DNA from: Ignavibacteriota bacterium | Lineage (GTDB): Bacteria; Bacteroidota; Ignavibacteria; UBA10030; CAVZMI01 | DNA: 64,000 bases | Direction of reading: 5' to 3' | Assembly (NCBI GenBank): GCA_963776275.1 | Contig: CAVZMI010000015.1 | Coordinates: 96,001-160,000 of the forward strand | Shown: piece after piece, positions 46,665 to 60,837 of the stretch | How positions within the stretch are numbered: the first letter of the stretch is position 1 | How the letters are laid out: each line of letters opens with the position of its first letter | Program-made: the position numbers and the translations under genes | Notes under the pieces: generated by a model | Database searches by the model: none | Seen by the model: only the letters and a program-made list of their open reading frames with translations | What the model was told of the DNA's origin: nothing

Positions 46665-49600
46665 ATGGAGTGCACTGGAATACAATATCGGTCTTGGCGA
46701 AACATTCTTTACCATTATCTATGGCTGTTTGTGGTGATTATTACAATCAATTCCCTTTGTCTATTTTCACAGCAGGTTGATCCGGGGTGGAATGTGATTC
46801 GCTCAACTCCATCGGAGTTGATTATCGAGTATCGTCCGGTATATCTCCCGTCGAAAGAGGTGCATATTGGTCAGCAAACTTTTACAACGATAGATTTTCT
46901 CGGATCCATTTCTTTTTCTTATCAGCATGAGGGATATCCCGATATTCGTTTCGCCAGCAGTTGCATCGGTGTTCCATCACGCACGATTCATACGACAATT
47001 ATTGCGGCAACATATGATGAGGTTCCCGGAATAAGTCTTCCTCCGATTCAAGTAATGGACGGCCGGATAAATGAAGCTGCAACCGAGAATAACCGGCAAA
47101 AAAATCCTGCATTCAATCAGGCGGCATATTCTTCGATGATATACTTGCCCGATACACTCGCACGTGTTATAGAAATCCGTGAAGTACAGCAAATGCTTGT
47201 GGCAAATATTGAAATCTTTCCTGTTCAATTCAATGCAGCGGCGCACAGTGTACGGAAATACAACCGAATTGTAATACAAATTCAATTTGGGATTCCAGCA
47301 GTCTATACTGTCCCAGCTGCATCCCCATCTCCGATTCTCTCGGTGATGTTGAATAAAGAGACGGCACGCAGTTGGAGAACCCGGCTGCCGGTCCTGAAAA
47401 AAGTACCGACCCCGAGTGTTCTCGCCAGTGGCGAGTGGTACAGGATTGAAGTAAAAAACACTGGTCTTTATAAACTCGATTATACGATGTTAAAAATTGC
47501 CGGTATAAATGTCGATCAAATCGACCCACGGACAATAAAAATTTATAATAACGGTGGAAGAGAACTCCCCGAACCTCTCTCGGTATCCCGCCCAAGTGAT
47601 CTTGTTGAAAACTCAATCCTGGTGAACGGTGAAGAAGACGGAAAATTCGATCCGACGGATGTCATTCTATTCTATGGAAGATCGCCCCGCGGGTGGACGT
47701 ACGATCAACTTAAAAAAACATTTCGTCATTATATCAACGATTATGCGGAATCAAATTATTACTGGTTGACATATAACGGGGTTCCCGGTAAACGGATGTC
47801 GGTCGTACCCGAAACGGAATCGCAAAATCCATATCGACCGTCGGGTATTGTCGGTAAAATCTTCTATGAAGAAGAAATGAACAAGATAATTCTCGGCGGT
47901 GCAGATGGATCCGGCCGCGCGTGGTATGGACCCAAATTGACCTCTCAGTTAAATTCACTTTCACGGCGAGAGACGCTCTCTGATGCCATTCCGGGAAATC
48001 CTGTCAGAATCAGAGTCAAAGCTGTGGGTCGTGCTGATCAGAGAACGACCATGCTTGTGTCGCAAGATAACAATGCTCTGGGCTCAATCGCCTTCTCTGC
48101 GGCGTCAAGTAGTGAGGAAGCGGATGAACCGGGACAAGTCGAATTTATTGGAAAAGTTCCTACAGGTACCGCTCAAACGATGATCCAATTCCAGTACGGG
48201 TGCCAAAGCGTTGCTGCAGAGGCTTATCTTGACTGGTATGATATCCTTTATTGGCGGGAGTCGCGTGCAATCAACGATGAATTACCGTTTGATGCACCTG
48301 ATACGAATGCAGTCGTTCTATACCACCTCGATGGATTTTCTTCGACAGATGTGAAGATTTTTGATGTTTCGGATTATGCTAATGTGAAAATCATGCAAAT
48401 GCATGCGGCGGCATTGACGGGGTATGAGCTACAGGTTCGGGCATCCTCCGGAAGCATATCGTCATATTTTGCCGTCGTATCGTCCGCATATAAAACACCC
48501 CTGGGCATTCAAAAAATGGCAAATTCGAACCTGCATGAGATCGATCCAAGTGCCGATTTGCTCATTATTACCCATAAAGATTTTTGGGATGCGGCATCAC
48601 GTCTGGCAACTTATCGAAATGCGGCTGGACGAAATTCCATGAAAACCGCAGTTGTCGACGTGGCAGATATATATAATGAATTTTCCTCAGGTCAATTGGA
48701 TCCGGTGGCGATCCGCGATTACATCCGACTTGCATACACTTCTTGGAAACATCCGCCAAAGTATGTTCTCCTCTTTGGAGATGGGACATATGATTTTAAA
48801 AATATTCTTGGCCGTGGACTGGAATGGATCCCGCCATATGAAACCGAAGAATCGCTTAATTACATTGACAGTTACACCTATGATGATTTCTATGTTATGC
48901 TTGATCTATACAGCAAGCTTCCAACAATTGCTATCGGACGGATTACATGCCGCTCACTCGATGAGGCCAATATATGGGTAGATAAAATTATCAACTATGA
49001 AACAAGTACGGATTTTGAAGAATGGAGAGACCTCCTGGTGTTTTGTGCCGATGACGGACTGAAATCGGAATCGCAAATAAACAGCGAGCCATATCATACA
49101 GAGGATACAGAGGCACTGAGCAATCTCTCTGCGTTAAAACGGTTTGATCAAAAAAAGATATATCTCGTTGAATATCCAACTGTGTTAAGTTCAAGCGGGC
49201 GCACAAAACCAGATGCAGCAGAAGCATTAATTAATCAGTGGAATCGCGGGGCATTGATGATCAGCTGGATGGGACACGGCAATCCAGAATATTGGGCTCA
49301 TGAACATGTTTTTGACCGGACAAAAACAATACCGCGATTAAACAACGGCAGTCGACTCCCTCTTGTTACTGCAGCGACATGCGATTTTGGACACTACGAC
49401 GCACTCGAGCAAAGTAGTGCTGAAGATCTGGCAAGCAGGAAAGAAGGAGGATCGATAGTCACAATTGCGACCTCACGTCCTGTCTTTGGTTCATTCAATG
49501 CAATGTTCATGATTTCATTGTATAAGGAATTACTCGGCCGGACCGATTCGATAGGACAAATTAGCCGTCTCGGCGACGCATGGATCCGGGCAAAACAAAA

Positions 49601-50738
49601 TCCTTCAGATCTCACAAACAACCAGAAATTTCTCATCATCGGAGATCCATCGATTCTTCCACTGGCACCACGAGCATTAATAGTAATCGATAGTATTAAC
49701 GCCATAGGCGCAGGTGAAACCGGCACGATTCTTATTCCAGCCCTGAAAAAGACAACAGTCCAGGGTCACCTTCGCCCGCCTCTTGACGTTCCGGGCACAC
49801 AACCGATGCAAGTTTCATTTGTTGTCAGAGATGGAAATAAGCATGTATCTCTTGTTGATGAATTGGACGGCCATTTTGATTTTAACAAATCCGGTGAAAT
49901 ACTTTTCCGAGGAATTGTTACGGTCCCGAATGGAAAATATACCGGCACATTTATCCCTCCTAAGGATATCTCGTACTCGGATAATAACGGACGCATCACC
50001 CTCTATGCCAATGATGGTACTCAGGATGCAGTAGGGTATTCAAATTCTATCTTGATAGGAGCTGTAGACAGCACGACAGTTACTGATACACAGGGACCAC
50101 AAATTTCGCTCTTCCTCCAGTCACGGAATTTCCAATCGGGCGATGTTGTCAATGAAAATCCCACACTCTATATCGATCTCTTTGATGAAAACGGTATCAA
50201 CCTTTCAACGGCAAGTATAGGTCACGGACTCGATATGTGGCTTGATGAAGCGTCGAAAAGTGTTCCTTTATCAGAATATTATCGCAGCGCACCCGATTCA
50301 TATCAAAAAGGGACAATTGAATACCCGCTTCAATCACTCTCATCAGGCGATCATACGCTGAAGGTGCGAGCTTGGGATGTGTTTAATAATTCAACAACAG
50401 CTGAAACAAAATTCCGGGTTGTATCGAGTGACGTATTCGTTGTAACCGATGTCATGAATTATCCAAATCCATTCTCGTCACAAACAACATTTACATTCAA
50501 TCAAAATCAGATCGAAGGCGTCGATGTCGAAGTAAAAATTTATACAGTTGCCGGCAGATTAATCCGAACATTGAAAGAACCGGGAATATCCGAGAGTTTT
50601 GTACGAATCCCATGGGATGGAACTGATGGAGATGGATCGCCGCTTGCCAATGGTGTCTATCTGTACAAGGTAATTGTGAAAACTGTAAGCGGTGATAAAA
50701 CGCAGGAAGTCCTTGGCAAACTGGCAGTCCTGAAATAG
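46665..50738 (+). CDS. porU: Type IX secretion system sortase PorU (C25 peptidase)
   Basis: SVLASGEWYRIEV, IYNEFSSG..DPVAIRD, GHG and ATC catalytic dyad, C-terminal NYPNPF...NGVYLYK CTD. Confidence 0.92.
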   Translation: MECTGIQYRSWRNILYHYLWLFVVIITINSLCLFSQQVDPGWNVIRSTPSELIIEYRPVYLPSKEVHIGQQTFTTIDFLGSISFSYQHEGYPDIRFASSCIGVPSRTIHTTIIAATYDEVPGISLPPIQVMDGRINEAATENNRQKNPAFNQAAYSSMIYLPDTLARVIEIREVQQMLVANIEIFPVQFNAAAHSVRKYNRIVIQIQFGIPAVYTVPAASPSPILSVMLNKETARSWRTRLPVLKKVPTPSVLASGEWYRIEVKNTGLYKLDYTMLKIAGINVDQIDPRTIKIYNNGGRELPEPLSVSRPSDLVENSILVNGEEDGKFDPTDVILFYGRSPRGWTYDQLKKTFRHYINDYAESNYYWLTYNGVPGKRMSVVPETESQNPYRPSGIVGKIFYEEEMNKIILGGADGSGRAWYGPKLTSQLNSLSRRETLSDAIPGNPVRIRVKAVGRADQRTTMLVSQDNNALGSIAFSAASSSEEADEPGQVEFIGKVPTGTAQTMIQFQYGCQSVAAEAYLDWYDILYWRESRAINDELPFDAPDTNAVVLYHLDGFSSTDVKIFDVSDYANVKIMQMHAAALTGYELQVRASSGSISSYFAVVSSAYKTPLGIQKMANSNLHEIDPSADLLIITHKDFWDAASRLATYRNAAGRNSMKTAVVDVADIYNEFSSGQLDPVAIRDYIRLAYTSWKHPPKYVLLFGDGTYDFKNILGRGLEWIPPYETEESLNYIDSYTYDDFYVMLDLYSKLPTIAIGRITCRSLDEANIWVDKIINYETSTDFEEWRDLLVFCADDGLKSESQINSEPYHTEDTEALSNLSALKRFDQKKIYLVEYPTVLSSSGRTKPDAAEALINQWNRGALMISWMGHGNPEYWAHEHVFDRTKTIPRLNNGSRLPLVTAATCDFGHYDALEQSSAEDLASRKEGGSIVTIATSRPVFGSFNAMFMISLYKELLGRTDSIGQISRLGDAWIRAKQNPSDLTNNQKFLIIGDPSILPLAPRALIVIDSINAIGAGETGTILIPALKKTTVQGHLRPPLDVPGTQPMQVSFVVRDGNKHVSLVDELDGHFDFNKSGEILFRGIVTVPNGKYTGTFIPPKDISYSDNNGRITLYANDGTQDAVGYSNSILIGAVDSTTVTDTQGPQISLFLQSRNFQSGDVVNENPTLYIDLFDENGINLSTASIGHGLDMWLDEASKSVPLSEYYRSAPDSYQKGTIEYPLQSLSSGDHTLKVRAWDVFNNSTTAETKFRVVSSDVFVVTDVMNYPNPFSSQTTFTFNQNQIEGVDVEVKIYTVAGRLIRTLKEPGISESFVRIPWDGTDGDGSPLANGVYLYKVIVKTVSGDKTQEVLGKLAVLK

Positions 50739-52255: not shown

Positions 52256-52587
52256 TCGACCTCCTGACAGAAAAATAGACGATTATTGACGATAAAACTA
52301 ATGAATCTCGGCACGAATGGCAAGCTTTTTTAGCTTCCCATGTTGAATATTCGTTTGGTCTGGAAAACTCTGAGAATATACATATAAATATAGAGCCCCT
52401 CATCATCCACAGACAAGGGCCTTTTTTATTTCGTCGTAATGTATCAGTATTCTTCAGGCGAAAGAATAATGAAAAAGCCGAACTAAAACGAATCCGGCTT
52501 TCTTCTGCGCACAAACAATACGCTGTTTTAAATCAACAGCGCTCCTTTAAACATTCACAATTCTGAACTCTGAATTCACTATTTACA

Positions 52588-52770
52588 TGTACCGGGGGAG
52601 CGTCTTAAAACGCTTTCAGCAAATTGTCCGAGAGAGTATTCACAATTCCGGTAGCCGACTTTAGCCGGAAGTCTCGAAAAATAAAGCAATAATCGTAACA
52701 GTAACAGGATCGTAACTGCGACAACGACTTGCGCTCGTGAGAGCTGTGGATCTGAGTGGCAGTTACGGTT
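52588..52770. repeat. tRNA-Met 3'-end core plus element terminus, copy 2
   Basis: Exact TGTACCGGGGGAG core; CGTAACTGC...GCAGTTACG inverted repeat; shares GCTCGTGAGAG with copy 1. Confidence 0.8.
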
Positions 52771-52851
52771 TTCCATTGTTCCCCACTTTAATCCATATCA
52801 TCCTTTTTACAGACTTAAAATAGACCACTTTGGGGGGAAGGTCAGATACCC

Positions 52852-52992
52852 TCACAGAATTCCGAATATTTTTAAAACTATCACGAGAACACCTAAAGCC
52901 ATCACACAGAGAAGAAATATCAGTATAAATTTTTTTCCAGGACTTAATTCATCGGTCATTTGTTGTTGCTTTGAAGAATCATTATGTGTCAT
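52852..52992 (-). CDS. Small 46-aa C-terminally anchored membrane protein
   Basis: GGGAGG RBS; MTHNDSSKQQQMTDELSPGKKFILIFLLCVMALGVLVIVLKIFGIL. Confidence 0.6.
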   Translation of the reverse strand: MTHNDSSKQQQMTDELSPGKKFILIFLLCVMALGVLVIVLKIFGIL

Positions 52993-53111
52993 GATAACCT
53001 CCCATTTGGTGGAACACGTTAAAATACAAATGACATCGACATTCATCTACCGTAGATGAAATCGACGTATTGCATTCCTGACTACTGAATAATACTGTTA
53101 TAGGAAGAATA

Positions 53112-53462
53112 TCATGATACAGGCGGGTCTCTGGAAAGGTATCGGAGATAGATAGCCTGCGTAAATTGATTAACCTCAGGCTGAATGGGAAGTAATACAG
53201 AGATTGAGTGAATCACCAATCCATCGACAGCAATGATCGCTGCGGAATGGACTGTGGTCTCCTGAAGGAGATGCTTCTGTGGGATTTGGAAACGATGTTC
53301 TTTCGGAATTGGATATTTTGAATCGTGAGTGGGCGAACCATAGGTATACGCACTGTCGATAACTATTGTCGTTTCTGATTTCACGGATTGACCGGCATAT
53401 ATGGTCGTCGGAAATCCGGCAATGACAAAAATAAATATACTATGGAGTAATACAGATTTCAT
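53112..53462 (-). CDS. Hypothetical exported protein ending in an RxPP motif
   Basis: Signal-like N-terminus, His-rich middle, C-terminal YLSRDPPVS*. Confidence 0.55.
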   Translation of the reverse strand: MKSVLLHSIFIFVIAGFPTTIYAGQSVKSETTIVIDSAYTYGSPTHDSKYPIPKEHRFQIPQKHLLQETTVHSAAIIAVDGLVIHSISVLLPIQPEVNQFTQAIYLRYLSRDPPVS

Positions 53463-53690
53463 TGCGAGAAGATAAGGAATTCCTGTTCTACAAACAATAC
53501 ATTTTTCAAATGGCTTTCTTGCTTAGATCTCTCTAAATCGATTATGTCAATGAATTTAGAGTGAAGAATGGAAGGTTGAAAAGGAAAAAGAAAAAAAGGT
53601 GAGAATTTAGATATGATAATTAAAGGGCGGTTTTACTTTAGCCAGCCACCGAAACATTCACAATTCACTACTCACAATTCACTATTGACT

Positions 53691-53835
53691 TGTACCGGGG
53701 GAGGGATTCTCCGCCGCAATGGACCGAGCTCTGGAGGCGGATCAGCCTCACCGATTTATAATGCGTGGCTGAGAATACATACCATCCCTTCGGGATGGTA
53801 GTACTGCTCGCTCCGCTTGCTGCCCACGACCTACG
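53691..53835 (-). repeat. att-like 35-bp duplicate of the tRNA-Met 3' end, interrupted by two hairpin inserts
   Basis: TGTACCGGGGGAGGGATTC [63 bp] GAA [47 bp] CCCACGACCTACG; with inserts removed it is identical to 59137-59171. Confidence 0.9.
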
Positions 53836-53934
53836 TATTTCAATACTAAGCACAAGACGATGCGGGAAAAATCTAATGCTAAATCACAGCCGAGTTTTTA
53901 TTCACAAGTCAATCTTCACAATTCACTATTTGTT

Positions 53935-53949
53935 TGTACCGGGGGAGCG
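53935..53949. repeat. Additional tRNA-Met 3'-end core
   Basis: TGTACCGGGGGAGCG, identical to 52588-52602, preceded by TTCACAATTCACTA. Confidence 0.75.
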
Positions 53950-54340
53950 CCATGTAACGTCGGGAAGAATTCTCACTCCCTCTTTTTTGCTCGAAACACC
54001 CACTTTTTGTTGGGAAGAGTCATCTTTTCGGATTAATGACAAATCATTCCTACCTGTTCGTCTTCTAGAACTGCCAAGCGGATACATTCACGGGAATCTG
54101 CCTTGTATCTTGTCTTTAAACTTGTTACAGCAATACAACAAAGGTTCAGAAAAATCAATGCTTATAAACCTGTAAATGAAACAATTAACCAATTAAAACT
54201 AAAATCTAAGCCCGGGTTACGGCGGGTCGCTTAATTATTTTTTAAAAAACTATTGACATTAACTCATTTTTATACTAATTATGGTTAATAAAATTAACTT
54301 GTTTATATTTGTATCAATATTTATTTTTAAACATAAAACA

Positions 54341-54962
54341 ATGGACAAAACAATGGACAAAACAACTTTAACACCTGAAGAAAGTCTCTTGTTAATAACA
54401 AAGACAATAGAAGAGACTAAAAAAAGATTTGAAGAAAATGGCTTCATTATTATTATTTTGGGGCATACTTATCTTTTATTGTATCACTAAGTCAGTTTGT
54501 ACTCACAAAACTGGGAATAAACAAGATCGTTTATATAGAAAATTATACAATTCGTAACTGGACTGTTATTTTATACCCGTTGTTTGGTGGGATAATACAT
54601 TTAATATATGTTAAAAAAACATAAAAAAAATTACCCAAAACCATCATAGGAAAGATCATTGGAGCAATGGGTTGGTGATGGTTCTGAATTTTATGATATT
54701 AGGTTTTTTCTTTGGGGACACACTTGGTGGACGCCTTATCCCTATATTTTTAATTTTACTTGCCTTCTGGTGCATAATCAATGGAGTTTCAATTAGTTTT
54801 AAACCGCTTATAATTGGAGGTATTCTGTTAAATTTGATTGGATTTGCTGCTTTTCATATCAACTGGCAATACCAGCCGTTAATGCTTACAGCAGGATCAT
54901 TAGTAGCTTTAATAATTCCGGGTATATTACTCAACAAAAACAAAAAACAGGAAAATGTTTAA
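54341..54962 (+). CDS. Multi-pass membrane protein, frameshifted
   Basis: MDKTTLTPEESLLLITKTIEETK start and TM-rich end in ORF 54672-54962; breaks fall at T/A/G runs. Confidence 0.65.
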
Positions 54963-55244
54963 AGATTTAGACCCATATTACACTCGCAGCTTCGTTTGTC
55001 AATAGTCTCTATTTTAATGACAGTTGATGAAGCCAATTTTAGTTTTATAAAAGAAACTACTAAGGCTGCAGCCGGCAATATAAGTATCCAAATAAAAAAA
55101 TTACAGGAGGCGGGATATGTTAAAGTAAAAAAAACTTTCAAAAATAATTATCCAAATACTACTATATCAATAACAAGTAAAGGAATAGAAGCATTTGAGG
55201 ACTATGTAAATAATCTTAAAAAATATATAAATCCCCAAAAATAA
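54955..55244 (+). CDS. Winged-helix (MarR-like, HTH_34) transcriptional regulator; frameshift near 54974
   Basis: MFKDLDP-ILHSQLRLSIVSIL...GNISIQIKKLQEAGYV...TSKGIEAF. Confidence 0.85.
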
Positions 55245-55293
55245 TTTTTTTACCAAAATGGTTAATATTATTAACTACTTAAAAGGATTAATT

Positions 55294-56987
55294 ATGAAAA
55301 CTACAATATTTATCTTAATGATTTCCATCCTGATGGAATTAAGTTGTGCTCAAAATAACTCGCAAAAGGTTGATGGGCAGATTCTGAAAAATACATTTAG
55401 TAAAGACGACATCCAGGCATTAAACTTCTATCGTCAATATAGTTCGTTTACCGATCCGGGAGAATATAAATATTTGTATAAAAATCTGCCTGATTCATTA
55501 CCGGAGCTTTGCAGTTTAATAAGATCCCAGTTTATTCATCCCTATGAGGAATTGCCAAAATATCGTGAACAAATTCCCAAAGAGAGATGGGATGAAACAT
55601 TAAAGTATCCAACAGTTAAATCGATTTTGAAGGGTCTTTTATCCTATGACTCCAGGGGTTTAGTGAAAGATCGGAAACCTGAAAACCGATTAGTACTTGC
55701 TTGCCGGGAAAATGCAATTTTACTGGCGTCAATATTAAAATATCGTGGCATTCCGGCCAGGGTTCGTGGTGGTTATGCTACTTATTTAATTCCTGACTTT
55801 CATACGAATCACGCAATTTGTGAAGTATGGAATGAAAATGACAAGCGTTGGATGCTTGTTGACCCTAGCACAGGTATGATTGATTTCAGCAGAGATAAAT
55901 TTGACTTTAGTAACGATGCATGGTTAAAAATGCAAAAGAAGGAAATAGATCCAAACTTATTTGGGATGCCTGGCCAACATCCGGGAGTTCTTTCGATAAT
56001 TGCGATAGTTTGTACTGATCTGGCATTCATATTGGGTACTGAATATACTATTTATCAATATGCACCAATATTGGATTATGCCTTTCAAAACAATAATCAA
56101 CTAACTTCAAAACATATAGAAACCCTAAACAGAATAAGTGAATTAATGAAATCGCTTGATGCCGATAACCTTTCGAAATTACAAGATATTTATAACAATA
56201 CACCTGAAATTCAAATTACAAAGACATTTGAATCTGATACAAAAAAATCAGAAAATTCGAAAATAACGCGAAGGCTAAAAATACTTCAATAAATAAACCA
56301 GATATTGAATTTGTAGATATACCAGGAGGTACATTTATGATGGGAAGCCCTGTTACCGAGCAGGGAAGAAAAGATGACGAGATACAACATCAAGTTACAC
56401 TGAGCGCTTTTAAAATGAGTAAATATCCTATCACCTTTGAGCAATACGATTTATTTTGTGACGCGACAGGAAGAACTAAACCCTGGGGACGTGAACAGGG
56501 AAATATTCCGGTTTCACGGGTTACCTGGTATGATGCGGCTGCATTTGCCGAGTGGATGGGTTGCAGGCTGCCAACTGAAGCAGAATGGGAATATGCAGCT
56601 CGTGCAAATACAACCACTCCTTTTTACACTGGTGATTGCCTGACATCTGATCAAGCAAATTTTAATGGGGAAGAACCTTATACAAATTGTGCTAAAAGTG
56701 AAAACAGAAATAAACCATTGCCAGTGGGTAGTTTTCCACCCAATGCCTTTGGATTATATGATATGCATGGTAATATATTGCAATGGTGCAATGATTGGTA
56801 TGGTGAATACAACGTAAATGAAAAAATAAATCCGAAAGGACCTGAAAAGGGAGCCAATAAAATAATTCGCGGTGGCGGCTGGCATAACGCGGCATGGGAA
56901 TGTCGGTCAGCCTATCGAGGAGGAGTAGGTCTTTATCCAGGAACCAGAGGTACGGGTATTGGTTTTAGGATAGTGAAAGATAAATAA
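55294..56987 (+). CDS. Transglutaminase-like lipoprotein probably fused to an FGE/SUMF1 domain; frameshift near 56260
   Basis: CREN...NHAICEVW...LVDP triad; alternate frame reads INKPDIEFVDIPGGTFMMGS into RLPTEAEWEYAAR and NAFGLYDMHGN. Confidence 0.8.
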
Positions 56988-57005
56988 TAATCAAAAAGAA
57001 ACTAT

Positions 57006-57933
57006 ATGATTGATGTTTCAAACCTAAGAAAAACATTCGATACCATTGAGGCGTTGAAAGGTATTTCATTCAACATTCAACAAGGTGAATGTTATGGACT
57101 TTTGGGTCCCAATGGTGCAGGTAAAACAACTACGATCTCCATCATGAGTACAATAGTAGAACCAAATGAAGGAGAAGTGAGAATTGCCGGATATGATTTG
57201 AAGAAGAATCCGTTGGAATGCAAGAAAAACATTGGCGTTGTTACACAGGAAATAGCACTTTATAATGAGCTCTCGGCATATGATAACTTACTATTTTGGG
57301 GAGGCTTATATAATGTTCCGAAACCGGAATTAACTAAGCGTATTGATGAAACAGTAAACCTGCTCGGACTGACCGACAGGAAGAATGATAAGGTAAAAAC
57401 CTATTCCGGTGGAATGAAACGCAGAATTAATATCGCTTCTGCATTGCTTCACAGGCCTAAAGTTCTGTTTATGGATGAACCTACTGTGGGTATTGACCCT
57501 CAGAGCCGGAATTTGATTTTTGAAGTGGTGGAAAAGCTGCATAAAGAGGGAATGACAATTGTTTATACCACTCATTATATGGAAGAGGCTGAGCGTTTGT
57601 GCGATCGTATCGGAATTATTGACAATGGAGAAATCATTGCGCAGGGAACATTGGATGAATTAAGGACATCAGGTTCGATGAAAGAAACCGTTGTAATCTC
57701 TTATACAAATCTTACAGATGAACGTTACAATACAATAGAAAAAGAATGGAATGATCTCCAACGTTTTGAAGACACGATACATTTTTATTCCATGAATATT
57801 CAGGGTGATTTATCAAAAATAATATTGAAGTGCAATGACGTTTGGTCTTGATATCCGGCATATTGATATCAAAAAGATTAACCTTGAAACCATATTTTTA
57901 AGTTTAACCGGAAAAAAACTAAGAGACAAATGA
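57006..57933 (+). CDS. ABC-2 type exporter ATP-binding subunit; frameshift near 57842
   Basis: GPNGAGKTT, YSGGMKRR, MDEPT; corrected end NLETIFLSLTGKKLRDK* overlaps the next ATG. Confidence 0.92.
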
Positions 57934-58727
57934 TAAAACTAGTTAAGAAAGATCTGAAATTATTCTTCAGTAATAGGCAAGACATGATGCTTACTTTTGT
58001 ATTGCCCATAATATTTATTACCCTGTTTGCTTTTGTTTTCGGGAAAATGAACAATTCTGAAGAAAATCATTTAGTGAGTCTTGTTCACTCGGTGGCAGGT
58101 ACATCAGTAATGATGCTATTATTTTCAGTAGCTGGAATAGGTGGAAGTTTTTTGGATGAAAAGCAGGAAGGTATGTTGAAGAAGTTACTTTGCTCACCCA
58201 TACCTCCTAACTATATCCTTTTTGGGAAATTGGTATTTGCTAATATCATTTCCATTATTCAGCTGTCAATCATGTTTATTTACGCCTGGCTGTTTTTTGG
58301 CTTAGACATTATGCACCATCTCCCTTCTCTTATACTTATAATTTTAACAATGGCATTTGCTTGTTCCGGTTTTGGTATAGTTCTTGCCTCATTTGCTAAA
58401 ACACGCCAACAAGTTCAGGGATTTTCATCAATAATTGTACTTATTATGAGTGGTATTGGAGGTAGTATGATCCCTATATTTGTAATGCCTGAAATTATGC
58501 AAAAGATAGCTGTTTTTACAGTTAATTATTGGGCGATACAGGGGATTTATGACATCTTCTGGAAGCTTGTTCCGATTAACAGATATTACATTCTTATCAA
58601 GAGTTTTTGTTTTAATTGGCATTGGAACTTTATTGAATTTCATAGCTCTTCAGATGTACAAGAGAAATATTTTAAAGATTGTTTAAATGGGCAAAAAAGT
58701 GCTGGCTATAACATCGTGTATAAGTAA
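57930..58727 (+). CDS. ABC-2 type permease (3' end probably frameshifted)
   Basis: DEKQEGMLKKLLCSP, GIGGSMIP; multiple TM helices. Confidence 0.88.
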   Translation: MIKLVKKDLKLFFSNRQDMMLTFVLPIIFITLFAFVFGKMNNSEENHLVSLVHSVAGTSVMMLLFSVAGIGGSFLDEKQEGMLKKLLCSPIPPNYILFGKLVFANIISIIQLSIMFIYAWLFFGLDIMHHLPSLILIILTMAFACSGFGIVLASFAKTRQQVQGFSSIIVLIMSGIGGSMIPIFVMPEIMQKIAVFTVNYWAIQGIYDIFWKLVPINRYYILIKSFCFNWHWNFIEFHSSSDVQEKYFKDCLNGQKSAGYNIVYK

Positions 58728-58837
58728 TGGCGGGGTTTATAGCGTATTTAACGTCTCGTTTAGCAGCGTAGGTCTGTAACGTGTGATACGGACGCAGCTC
58801 TGAAGTCCCTTACTGTTCCTACCGTCGACCGTTAGTC
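58705..58837 (+). other. Degenerate attC-like site
   Basis: GCTATAAC...GTTAGTC ends about 133 bp apart at the end of the permease gene; partial inner complementarity (AGTAA/TTACT). Confidence 0.4.
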
Positions 58838-58980
58838 GCAATTTCACGCCAAGCAATTGGTACTTTACAAACATTATAACTATGGAAGAAAATTTTTTCA
58901 TTAGAGATAGTTCACATATCGGATACTGTTCATTTAACCAAAATACAAAATCCCCCAAAACATCTGGAGGAATTTTCACT

Positions 58981-59136
58981 CAATTCTTCAATCTTCAATC
59001 TTCCCGCCTACGCTAAAGCTTCGGCGGGTGAACCGGGCATTATCAATCTTCATTCTTTCCGTCCAAAAAACATGGCGGATTTCGTTCAGCCCGCCTATGG
59101 CGGGCTTCACTCAACAATCTTAAATCTTCAATCATT
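58981..59136. repeat. TCTTCAA heptamer repeats interleaved with three GC hairpin elements
   Basis: CCCGCC-tacgctaaagcttc-GGCGGG, TCCGtC...GGCGGA, AGCCCGCC-tat-GGCGGGCT between (A)ATCTTCA units. Confidence 0.75.
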
Positions 59137-59138
59137 TG

Positions 59139-59212
59139 TACCGGGGGAGGGATTCGAACCCACGACCTACGGATTATGATTCCGACGCTCTAACCAGCTG
59201 AGCTACCCCGGC
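59139..59212 (-). tRNA. tRNA-Met (CAU), elongator-like; CCA not encoded
   Basis: GCCGGGGTAGCTCAGCTGGTTAGAGCGTCGGAATCATAATCCGTAGGTCGTGGGTTCGAATCCCTCCCCCGGTA folds as a cloverleaf; Ile2 not formally excluded. Confidence 0.93.
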
Positions 59213-59272
59213 ATTGAATTGCGATGATGAAAAATGGCGTCATTCAACGACGCCATTCATATGACCGGAAAA

Positions 59273-59301
59273 AAGATAAGGAAAATATACTCGAAAAGCA
59301 A
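59273..59301 (-). promoter_or_regulatory. sigma70-like promoter for the intact tRNA
   Basis: TTGCTT-N17-TATCTT. Confidence 0.5.
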
Positions 59302-59403
59302 TGGAGAAATGCCGTTCGAAAACAACTCCGGCTCTCGTGCATCCTCAAGGACAGAGGCAATTCAGAGGAGATGGTCAAAGGCTGTCTTTGCTCTCAATAA
59401 ATG

Positions 59404-59687
59404 TTCCGGGGGAGGGATTCTCCGCCACGACTGATGATACGAGAAGGCGGATGCCTGCCCGCCGCTCCGCTCTTGCAGGCGGGCGCCTCTGGCGCAGAAC
59501 ACTGGGCTGCCTTCTGCAGCCCAGTACTGCTCGTCCCTCAAGGGACTTGCTGCCCACGACCGGAGTTTATCCCGCCGTTATTTGGCGGGAGATTATGATT
59601 CCGACCTGTCCCGATTGCTCTTGATCGGGACGCTCTAACCAGCTGCCTGCCCGCCGTGCTTCATCTTTTGGCGGGAGCTACCCCGGC
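59404..59687 (-). pseudogene. Second tRNA-Met(CAU) copy interrupted by five palindromic inserts
   Basis: Six collinear segments (59404-20, 59497-99, 59553-61, 59591-605, 59632-45, 59676-87) reproduce 70 of the 74 nt of the intact tRNA, with one substitution. Confidence 0.92.
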
Positions 59688-59698
59688 GCCTACTTTTC

Positions 59699-59727
59699 AA
59701 TATAAAAAATAAATCCTTCGGTTGCAA
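59699..59727 (-). promoter_or_regulatory. sigma70-like promoter for the interrupted tRNA copy
   Basis: TTGCAA-N17-TATATT, 11 nt upstream of tRNA position 1. Confidence 0.6.
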
Positions 59728-60137
59728 TCTATCTATAGTCTGCCATCTCCACGTTGCCAAATACTCTATAGATAATACTGACACACTATATGTCAAATAG
59801 AAAAATTGGTTCCTGGGCATTATAGGGTATCCGAAAACCGACATTATTAATTGATTCTAAATGCATATTTTCATTCCTTTCTAAGAAAGGAATATGTCGA
59901 ATTCTATCTCTTAATTTCAATCCTGTTTTGGTATGCTAGGCTTTGAAACTATGTACAGCATTTTACAAAGCATGACATCTTCGTCGGGGTTTCTGTGGAA
60001 CACATAATTGCTGTTTTAAGCCGAAGCCTTTTGCGATGTCCTGTCACGCTTCGGCACTCAGTCATCCTGACCAGCGCAATCTTCGGACTTTCTGGAACTC
60101 TCTATTTACAGGAAATTCCTAAGAAAGGAAGGAGAAT

Positions 60138-60837
60138 TTGATGATTTATAAAAGGAAAAAAAAGGAATCTCGAGCCGCTTCTATACTTGGATATCCTGCT
60201 TCTTCACAGAATCTACTACCGATCGAACTGCCGAGGCCCACACTTGATCGTGGTAAATCAGTATTAAAAGCATTACAGCAAAGAAAAACTATCCGTGAAA
60301 TAAGTGATAAAAAACTTACTTTGCAAGTACTTTCAAATCTCCTCTGGGCAGCATGCGGAGTAAATCGTAAAAAAGGTCCGTTTGGAATTCCTGGAAGAAC
60401 TGCTGCTTCAGCAAGTAACTCACAGGAAATTGATCTTTATGTTGCCATTCAGGAAGGAATTTATTTATATGATGCATTTCATCACAGGCTGGTTCCAGTT
60501 GTTGCGGGTGACCTGCGTACCCTGGCAATTGGTCATGGCCAGGCGAATTTTGTAGCTAAGGCTCCGGTTCATCTCATTTACATTGTGGATGTCAATAAAC
60601 TTTCCAATACATCCGGTTATCAGGAACCTGGATTGCAAGATCCTGAAATTCAAAAATCATATTATTATGTTGATACAGGTCTCATTGCAGGCAACGTATA
60701 TTTGTTTGCTGCTTCTCAAGGTCTGGCGTCATGGTTCCATAATTGCAATAAATCCGGTCTTACAGCAAAATTAAAATTGCGTGCCTGACCAGCGGGTACT
60801 CTTTGGCCAGACAGTTGGATATCCTGTTAGGAAATAA
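60138..60837 (+). CDS. Nitroreductase family (SagB/ThcOx-like) protein; frameshift near 60785
   Basis: ALQQRKTIRE, LSNLLWAACG, RTAASASNSQ, GNVYLFA; corrected end DQRVLFGQTVGYPVRK*. Confidence 0.88.

Follow-up and report, generated by a model that had tools for sequence, protein, structure and literature searches.

A displaced fragment of a tRNA-Met gene is interrupted by two structured inserts, A and B, at two separate T-loop junctions. We favor, with modest confidence, the view that A and B represent two families of short DNA modules with hairpin structure, copied in a specific orientation into the loops of redundant tRNA copies, with a GIY-YIG nuclease as the candidate trigger. The inserts are best read as not being parts of a working tRNA. 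Across the copies described below, the junction is constant and the payload is not. The fragment occupies positions 53691–53835 of the window, by which we mean the whole 64,000-nucleotide stretch analyzed (contig C15:96001–160000 of a 3.70 Mb draft genome with 45% GC, here called G000).

Reading the fragment along the plus strand gives the reverse complement of the tRNA 3′ end as far as GGATTC, then A, the triplet GAA, B, and finally CCCACGACCTACG. The first tRNA-derived piece (53691–53709, minus strand) copies tRNA-Met positions ~58–76, comprising the 3′ acceptor strand and the 3′ half of the T-arm, with 100% BLAST identity to positions 58–75 and an exact spliced match. Insert A (53710–53772, 63 nt), delimited by sequence reading and splicing, falls between tRNA positions 56 and 57 and is a double hairpin, TCCGCC-20nt-GGCGGA followed by TCAGCC-19nt-GGCTGA. 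Splicing also places the retained T-loop triplet (53773–53775, minus strand; GAA on the plus strand corresponds to tRNA TTC 54–56), beyond which insert B (53776–53822, 47 nt; covariance-model E 8.9e-14) falls between positions 53 and 54 and is laid out as YACWT, a first hairpin, AGTACTGCTCG, a reduced second hairpin, and CTTGCTG. The final piece (53823–53835, minus strand; placed by splicing) copies positions ~42–53, that is, the 5′ T-stem, the variable loop, and the start of the anticodon stem. Joined together, the three tRNA-derived pieces give 35 nt that exactly match the intact tRNA-Met (59137–59171), a minus-strand tRNA-Met(CAT) gene at 59138–59212 (start at 59138/9) recognized by ARAGORN and by Rfam RF00005 (66 bits).

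Beyond the intact gene lies a full-length but decayed tRNA-Met copy (59404–59692, minus strand), in which sequence reading, splicing, and comparison with an ortholog in the same-genus genome G009 resolve five inserts. Two occupy the 56/57 (59421–59496, 76 nt) and 53/54 (59500–59552, 53 nt) junctions, and the others sit on the anticodon stem/variable side (59562–59591), after the D-stem (59606–59631), and in the D-arm (59645–59675). Both loci are thus interrupted at identical junctions, GGATTC^GAA^CCCAC. Splicing and the 35-nt tRNA match bear out the original prediction of inserts at two junctions, with B first stems that are unrelated in sequence between the loci, each of which still pairs on a shared scaffold. 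Its description of A as a double hairpin in both places holds at 53691 and needs correction at 59421, where the second part of the insert is not a simple TGCGCC-tct-GGCGCA hairpin: it contains an extra GCCTGC...GCAGGC hairpin followed by a 5-bp GCGCC/GGCGC stem. Folded as single-stranded DNA and compared with shuffled sequences, the fragment gave a z-score of −2.8 and the full copy −5.0. Chance is excluded by the exact 35-nt match taken with the finding that both modules turn up at identical junctions in other tRNA settings. As a separate observation, a GTCCCGAT...ATCGGGAC stem follows the D-stem (GAGC) both at 59606–59631 and in five tandem tRNA-Gly(gcc) 5′ fragments at C18:93450–93812, which would fit a third position-specific module.

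The fragment and the intact gene are separated by an island-like segment of ~5.3 kb (53836–59137), in which Pfam identifies genes for a transglutaminase-like protein, an FGE-sulfatase, and an ABC transporter. The interval ~53900–59100 had no significant match in either G009 or the same-family genome G018, so that a direct repeat of the tRNA 3′ part (35 nt without A and B) bounds DNA that is missing from relatives. The best reading of 53691–53835 is that it is an att-like leftover, the displaced 3′ end of tRNA-Met beside ~5.3 kb of foreign DNA, and a fragment that tolerated both modules because it was non-functional. As the original prediction suggested, disruption of this att duplicate could conceivably fix the island in place. 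A second, 12-nt remnant of the tRNA-Met 3′ end, found by sequence reading, lies behind a similar AATTCACTAT flank (53935–53946, minus strand). Pfam identified no recombinase or integrase among the 10 ORFs of at least 80 aa between 46665 and 61686, and the 53691/59404 locus contains no nuclease, transposase, or integrase genes. Upstream of the locus (46665–50738) is a gene for a gingipain-like Peptidase_C25 protein of 1357 aa with a propeptide, an FlgD-Ig domain, and a Por secretion tail, a protein that places the genome in the FCB group. We also observed AATTCACTA / TGAATTGTGA repeats just past the 3′ ends of several tRNA genes and fragments (window 53640–53690 and 53915–53934; elsewhere in G000, C15:164940–164990 and C23:276040–276075), often preceding a CTG-TCCGCC hairpin of the type that flanks Y1 transposase genes.

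In G000 and two relatives, modules of the A or B type are found at these two junctions in spare tRNA copies of Met, Met2, Lys, Pro, Ser, Thr, and Val-like identity. We searched 201 genomes of the order for an A signature, defined as the second stem and its TCACC loop, and obtained 11 matches: 9 in G000, 2 in G009, and none elsewhere. Seven of the 11 copies lie at the 56/57 T-loop junction of Met, Ser, Pro, or Thr fragments, in one orientation throughout; flanks were inspected for 10 copies, the remaining one being from G009. Two tRNA-Ser fragments on contig C37 carry, at this same junction, a module near-identical to the window's A. Three of the nine G000 copies fall outside recognizable tRNA sequence, within a 330-nt non-coding repeat, at a T-loop-like GATC^GAA site. 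This repeat of ~330 nt is present in three copies (C15:78900–79700, which is outside the window, C6:30030–30830, and C31:15700–16498), starts with a long perfect hairpin, tgtccctttctttc...gaaagaaagggaca, carries the A-type double hairpin at GATC^GAA, and has no Rfam match at E≤0.1.

For B, a covariance model trained on 7 distinct copies and run on 150 genomes (threshold E<1e-6) returned 14 strong matches, all within a single family (f1), in G000 (8 copies), G009, and G018. Thirteen of these interrupt Met, Met2, Lys, Pro, or Val-like fragments at the 53/54 junction, including 3 that were absent from the training set, while 1 of the 14 lies outside any tRNA sequence. The three Lys copies, from G000 and G009, have TCA in place of GAA. 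Strict sequence patterns for A and B matched only within this genus, and the looser B model added only the sister genus represented by G018. A metagenome scan for the B scaffold yielded at least 120 matching stretches, which we attribute to chance because the B model fitted 0 of 80 among the matches listed.

Other hairpins also use the 56/57 position. A long CCGC...GC hairpin occupies 56/57 at tRNA-Pro(tgg) and in a tRNA-Met fragment of G018, and the composite at window position 59421 is another hairpin type sitting at this junction. At C18:99155–99489 an intact tRNA-Leu(taa) gene is nested within an older copy of itself that is split at 56/57, the inserted segment being bounded by 13-nt perfect inverted repeats (GTCCCGACAGACG / CGTCTGTCGGGAC) that adjoin CCCGCC/GGCGGG. 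The varied hairpins and the Leu gene segment at 56/57 indicate a constant site with a variable payload. Target duplication is absent from the insertion differences between G000 and G009, host-specific bases being retained up to the module ends, and in some fragments a hairpin substitutes for 7–8 nt rather than being cleanly inserted.

BLAST against the genome placed spare partial tRNA copies within ~2 kb of 16 of the 46 tRNA genes predicted by ARAGORN, several of them in short tandem arrays, and the hairpins in these copies are located at, or take the place of, the D-loop, the anticodon region, or the T-loop. G000 contains 15 GIY-YIG matches, 8 of which are small ORFs adjoining tRNA genes that have hairpin-bearing copies: one each at Pro-ggg, Pro-tgg, Ser-cga, and Ser-gga, and four in tandem units at a tRNA-Met on contig C10. 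All eight have an intact tRNA on one side and a hairpin-bearing copy on the other, so that five tRNA loci have a GIY-YIG gene of ~70–100 aa between tRNA copies. The GIY-YIG gene on C37 (20836–21036), which encodes a 72-aa protein with paralogs on C20 and C10, is bracketed by two A modules that share ~96% identity with the A of the window, and the nearest solved relative of its product is a UPF0213 protein (a weak match, E 1.6e-4). At the window locus itself, tblastn with 11 G000 GIY-YIG proteins found no remnant at E<0.01 in 52500–55300 or 58700–60200, and no GIY-YIG gene accompanies B at any B locus inspected.

The region C10:40586–42065 contains an intact initiator-like tRNA-Met and, after it, four 349-bp units in tandem. 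Every unit combines a mini GIY-YIG ORF with a full tRNA copy in which a TCCGCC-GAA-GGCGGA hairpin stands in for the D-loop, and the ORF continues into the next tRNA copy and its hairpin. At C21:225020–226577 a decayed tRNA-Arg(tct) copy has hairpins at, or replacing, the D-, anticodon-, and T-loops. An ORF of ~1.1 kb, a putative transposase by eye, separates this copy from the intact gene, and the upstream flank was duplicated along with the tRNA.

The company that these loci keep bears on whether A and B could instead be REP-like repeats moved by Y1 (RAYT/IS200-type) transposases rather than by a GIY-YIG nuclease, an explanation to which we assign a small probability. Y1 enzymes insert hairpin DNA without target duplication. 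G000 has nine Y1_Tnp matches, and the Y1 genes at C23:193133, C28:53606, and C12:68627 adjoin TCCGCC...GGCGGA hairpins, whose stem is the commonest 6-bp GC-rich stem in G000 (111 loci) and forms the first stem of insert A as well. However, the transposase-linked hairpins have a CTG prefix and a GGAACGAAGTGAA-type loop, neither of which is found in A, and the TCCGCC stem is missing from B altogether. No Y1 gene lies near any inspected tRNA fragment array or A- or B-bearing locus; the tRNA loci are paired with GIY-YIG genes instead.

Comparison of sister genomes reveals hairpins being gained, nested, and swapped within the genus. The G009 ortholog of the 59404 copy is 80% identical to its counterpart, versus 94% for the adjacent coding flank, and the two copies carry different hairpins on the same scaffold. 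The T-loop inserts of the G009 copy are of the 53691 type, unlike the 59404-type inserts of its G000 ortholog; a 30-nt D-arm hairpin present in G000 is missing from G009, and G009 has one extra hairpin nested in the loop of another. Similarly, a Val-like fragment contains a 76-nt insert in G000 that is absent from its G009 ortholog. The clearest contrast comes from a tRNA-Pro fragment whose orthology is established by ~200 nt of flank at >90% identity: in G000 it has A at 56/57 and an empty 53/54 junction, whereas in G009 it has B at 53/54 and an empty 56/57 junction. This G009 B shares an identical 41-nt stretch with the B of a Met2 fragment in G000.

These differences clarify the choice posed by the original prediction, which had set independent site-specific insertions by two element families against an ancestral insertion with structure-preserving stem replacement. 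Independent insertion is upheld by the occurrence of A alone and B alone at their own junctions, and by the tRNA-Pro fragment. Stem replacement is upheld by covariation of the B stems and by the different hairpins on a common scaffold in the orthologous full-length copies. The evidence supports a mixture of both in place of the proposed either/or. Public sequencing runs contained at most 0.20 of the sampled words, with depths of only 0 to ~1.6 over 53621–53841 and 59367–59587, and at that depth gave no sign of movement at read level; in one low-depth contig (X1, depth 2.8), 59223 is connected with 59553 by 40 letters of other sequence.

The same comparison informs an alternative that needs no dedicated mechanism, in which A and B were each inserted once, long ago, and gene conversion among similar T-arms then spread them over the tRNA fragments. 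Near-unchanged A and B occur together in two different tRNA-Met copies, the full-length one in G009 and the 53691 fragment in G000, which fits transfer of a whole T-arm segment, and GGTTCGAA is common to the T-arms of different tRNAs. Against this, the flanks are host-specific up to the module ends (GGATTT in Pro and Thr, GGATTC in Met and Ser), leaving homology of only ~6 nt on one side and 2–3 nt on the other, and the tRNA-Pro fragment indicates that A and B move separately. We consider gene conversion an improbable explanation for the distribution of A and B.

We found that the two stems of B covary. In an alignment of 7 sequences, 91.3% of cells pair, as compared with 72.9% after shuffling (0 of 500 shuffles reach the observed value) and 29–50% when partners are slid, and 8 of the 14 pairs in the two stems are changed on both sides. 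These 7 distinct sequences come from three genomes, and the structure was derived from the same sequences; the covariation is limited to this number because only three genomes have B. In A, the third pair of the second stem is A-T, C-G, or T-A depending on the copy. Loops are mostly of three bases (TTC/GAA, GTA), and 3-nt loops of this kind are typical of stable DNA mini-hairpins and not of RNA.

Covariation of the B stems could also arise if the insert-bearing copies were structured-RNA genes, built from tRNA-derived scaffolds with expansion hairpins, so that pairing is preserved by RNA function. Two genera have conserved the single-stranded linkers of B, and both G000 and G009 retain the full-length copy, as would be expected of such genes. 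Yet a search of Rfam 15 at E≤1 gave only tRNA, at the intact genes, and weak chance matches, with nothing of note for the insert-bearing copies. The 59404 copy evolves faster than its flank, its hairpins are swapped, nested, and unlike between sister species, many loops take the 3-nt DNA mini-hairpin form, and the points at which fragments are truncated vary. RNA function of the insert-bearing copies is, in our assessment, decidedly unlikely.

Scarcely credible is ordinary decay of a single recent duplication from which the 53691 and 59404 loci inherited their shared positions: both derive from the same tRNA gene and have B linker sequences in common, but their A loops and B first stems are unrelated, and at a point where a hairpin interrupts the full copy the fragment still reads cctacg, as in the intact gene. 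Five other tRNA species contain these modules too, and the tRNA-Pro contrast further excludes the point divergence of one duplication, which the original prediction had named among the outcomes that would refute it.

Several other candidates were rejected along the way. Multiple tRNA introns of the archaeal type do not apply to a genome that is bacterial (Peptidase_C25 with a T9SS tail; 46 ordinary tRNAs) and in which the copies adjoin intact genes. Apparent UUCG tetraloops, considered as a sign of antisense RNA, are in fact 3-nt TTC loops closed by C-G. The 632- and 633-nt introns called in tRNA-Thr and tRNA-Lys by the ARAGORN intron mode fall within coding sequence, are mutually unrelated, and represent false calls.

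On the reading of A and B as modules copied into redundant tRNA copies, both probably belong to a genome-wide system of tRNA-lodged mini GIY-YIG nucleases and hairpins. A nuclease acting on folded single-stranded tRNA-gene DNA would cut in a loop, the prime candidate being a tRNA-lodged mini GIY-YIG protein working in trans. A hairpin module would then be copied into the break, destroying the site; modules would enter the T-loop junctions in one fixed orientation and without target-site duplication, A at 56/57 and B at 53/54. Afterwards, compensatory change could preserve the stems, or new hairpins could take their place. Such cutting and copying-in, by destroying the target, would explain why a constant site carries differing hairpins, and by inference a nuclease-triggered, target-destroying copy-in offers the most economical account.

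The originally predicted recognition of hairpin structure together with a target sequence is plausible, since the inserts sit in the loops of tRNA arms and of earlier hairpins. More tentatively, we raise the possibility that bacteria of this group possess a structure-aimed insertion process that reads the loops of folded single-stranded tRNA genes and of earlier hairpins and writes modules at exact phosphodiester positions of the T-loop (53/54 and 56/57), probably by way of a minimal tRNA-lodged GIY-YIG protein. Such a process, if real, would define a novel class of site-specific mobile DNA, with an invariant site and a payload that can be anything from a bare hairpin to an entire substitute tRNA gene. 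Placement of the modules by an enzyme that reads folded single-stranded DNA would provide a compact natural system for exact-site insertion in conserved genes, and would explain the arrays of broken tRNA copies that confuse annotation in many uncultured bacteria. As candidates for that enzyme, the small nucleases whose genes lie nearby might serve as tools for single-strand DNA, and the tRNA-Pro contrast between sister species offers a concrete, datable pair of events.

In the literature we searched, neither spare tRNA copies filled with hairpins nor mini GIY-YIG cassettes lodged at tRNAs had been described; the related work that we found concerns att fragments, organellar hairpin elements, and Ssn nucleases. 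New here are the two separate junctions, the two module families, the A-versus-B contrast between sister species, the covariation of B, and the constancy of the junctions. Integrative elements reportedly leave partial tRNA genes (attL/attR) behind, and the 53691 fragment resembles these in being a 35-nt copy of a tRNA 3′ part at the far end of a 5.3-kb segment that relatives lack. It differs from them in that no integrase was found here and in its two structured inserts, which classic att fragments are not known to contain.

Phage T4 SegB offers a second parallel. This free-standing GIY-YIG homing endonuclease gene resides in a tRNA gene cluster and presumably spreads by cutting a tRNA-gene target; in both cases a GIY-YIG gene of small size is lodged among tRNAs. 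Enzymes of the SegB type have DNA-binding domains, and we know of none reported together with hairpin-filled spare tRNA copies. REP/REPIN elements and their RAYT (Y1) transposases resemble A and B as short, GC-rich, lineage-specific palindromes in which stems are kept and loops are free, and Y1 genes in G000 are flanked by TCCGCC hairpins, though of another subtype than A. In contrast to these high-copy extragenic palindromes, A and B are low-copy (9 and 8 in G000), lie at exact junctions within tRNA-derived DNA in a single orientation, and share no tag, prefix, or loop with the CTG-TCCGCC transposase-linked hairpins.

Mitochondrial hairpin elements, which include the Allomyces DHEs, yeast GC clusters, and sponge RHEs, are described in the available portion of their source as small hairpins, whether single, double, or triple, that multiply in their host genome and are not the same in closely related species (PMC2800124). 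One element may be nested in another, and RNA genes are among the places where they can be found (PMC2800124), all of which recalls A and B. For the Allomyces elements that portion reports no flanking duplication and gives the mechanism as unknown (PMC2800124). These elements are organellar, and neither a fixed tRNA-loop position nor a link to spare tRNAs appears in the same text (PMC2800124).

By analogy, and judging from the accessible part of the published account, the nearest characterized system appears to be that of Ssn, the one family of single-domain GIY-YIG single-stranded DNA nucleases to have been characterized, with its NTS/SRM hairpin repeats (Chenal et al. 2025, PMC11893778). The repeats described there are dispersed in hundreds of copies without fixed tRNA positions, and tRNA is mentioned nowhere in the text of that paper that was available (0 occurrences; PMC11893778). 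The SRM search motif published in that text is unmatched by the hairpins described here (PMC11893778): as a regular expression on both strands, HGTCWY..YYVSBRH..WNVSBRG..RNCYNB had 6 matches in G000, versus ~11 expected under a Markov-1 model, and none in the tRNA loci of the window or within 600 bp of 10 GIY-YIG loci. The Ssn system has a single-domain GIY-YIG protein of ~90–100 aa flanked by the repeats; the 8 small GIY-YIG ORFs of G000 that adjoin tRNAs with hairpin-bearing copies lie elsewhere in the genome, with none at the window locus. As far as the source text extends, Ssn recognizes folded single-stranded DNA and cuts just outside the hairpin (PMC11893778). The likeness would lie in single-domain GIY-YIG proteins of very small size, encoded by genes with short GC-rich hairpin repeats on their flanks (PMC11893778, in the part available), which may find its counterpart here in the C37 gene with an A module on both sides.
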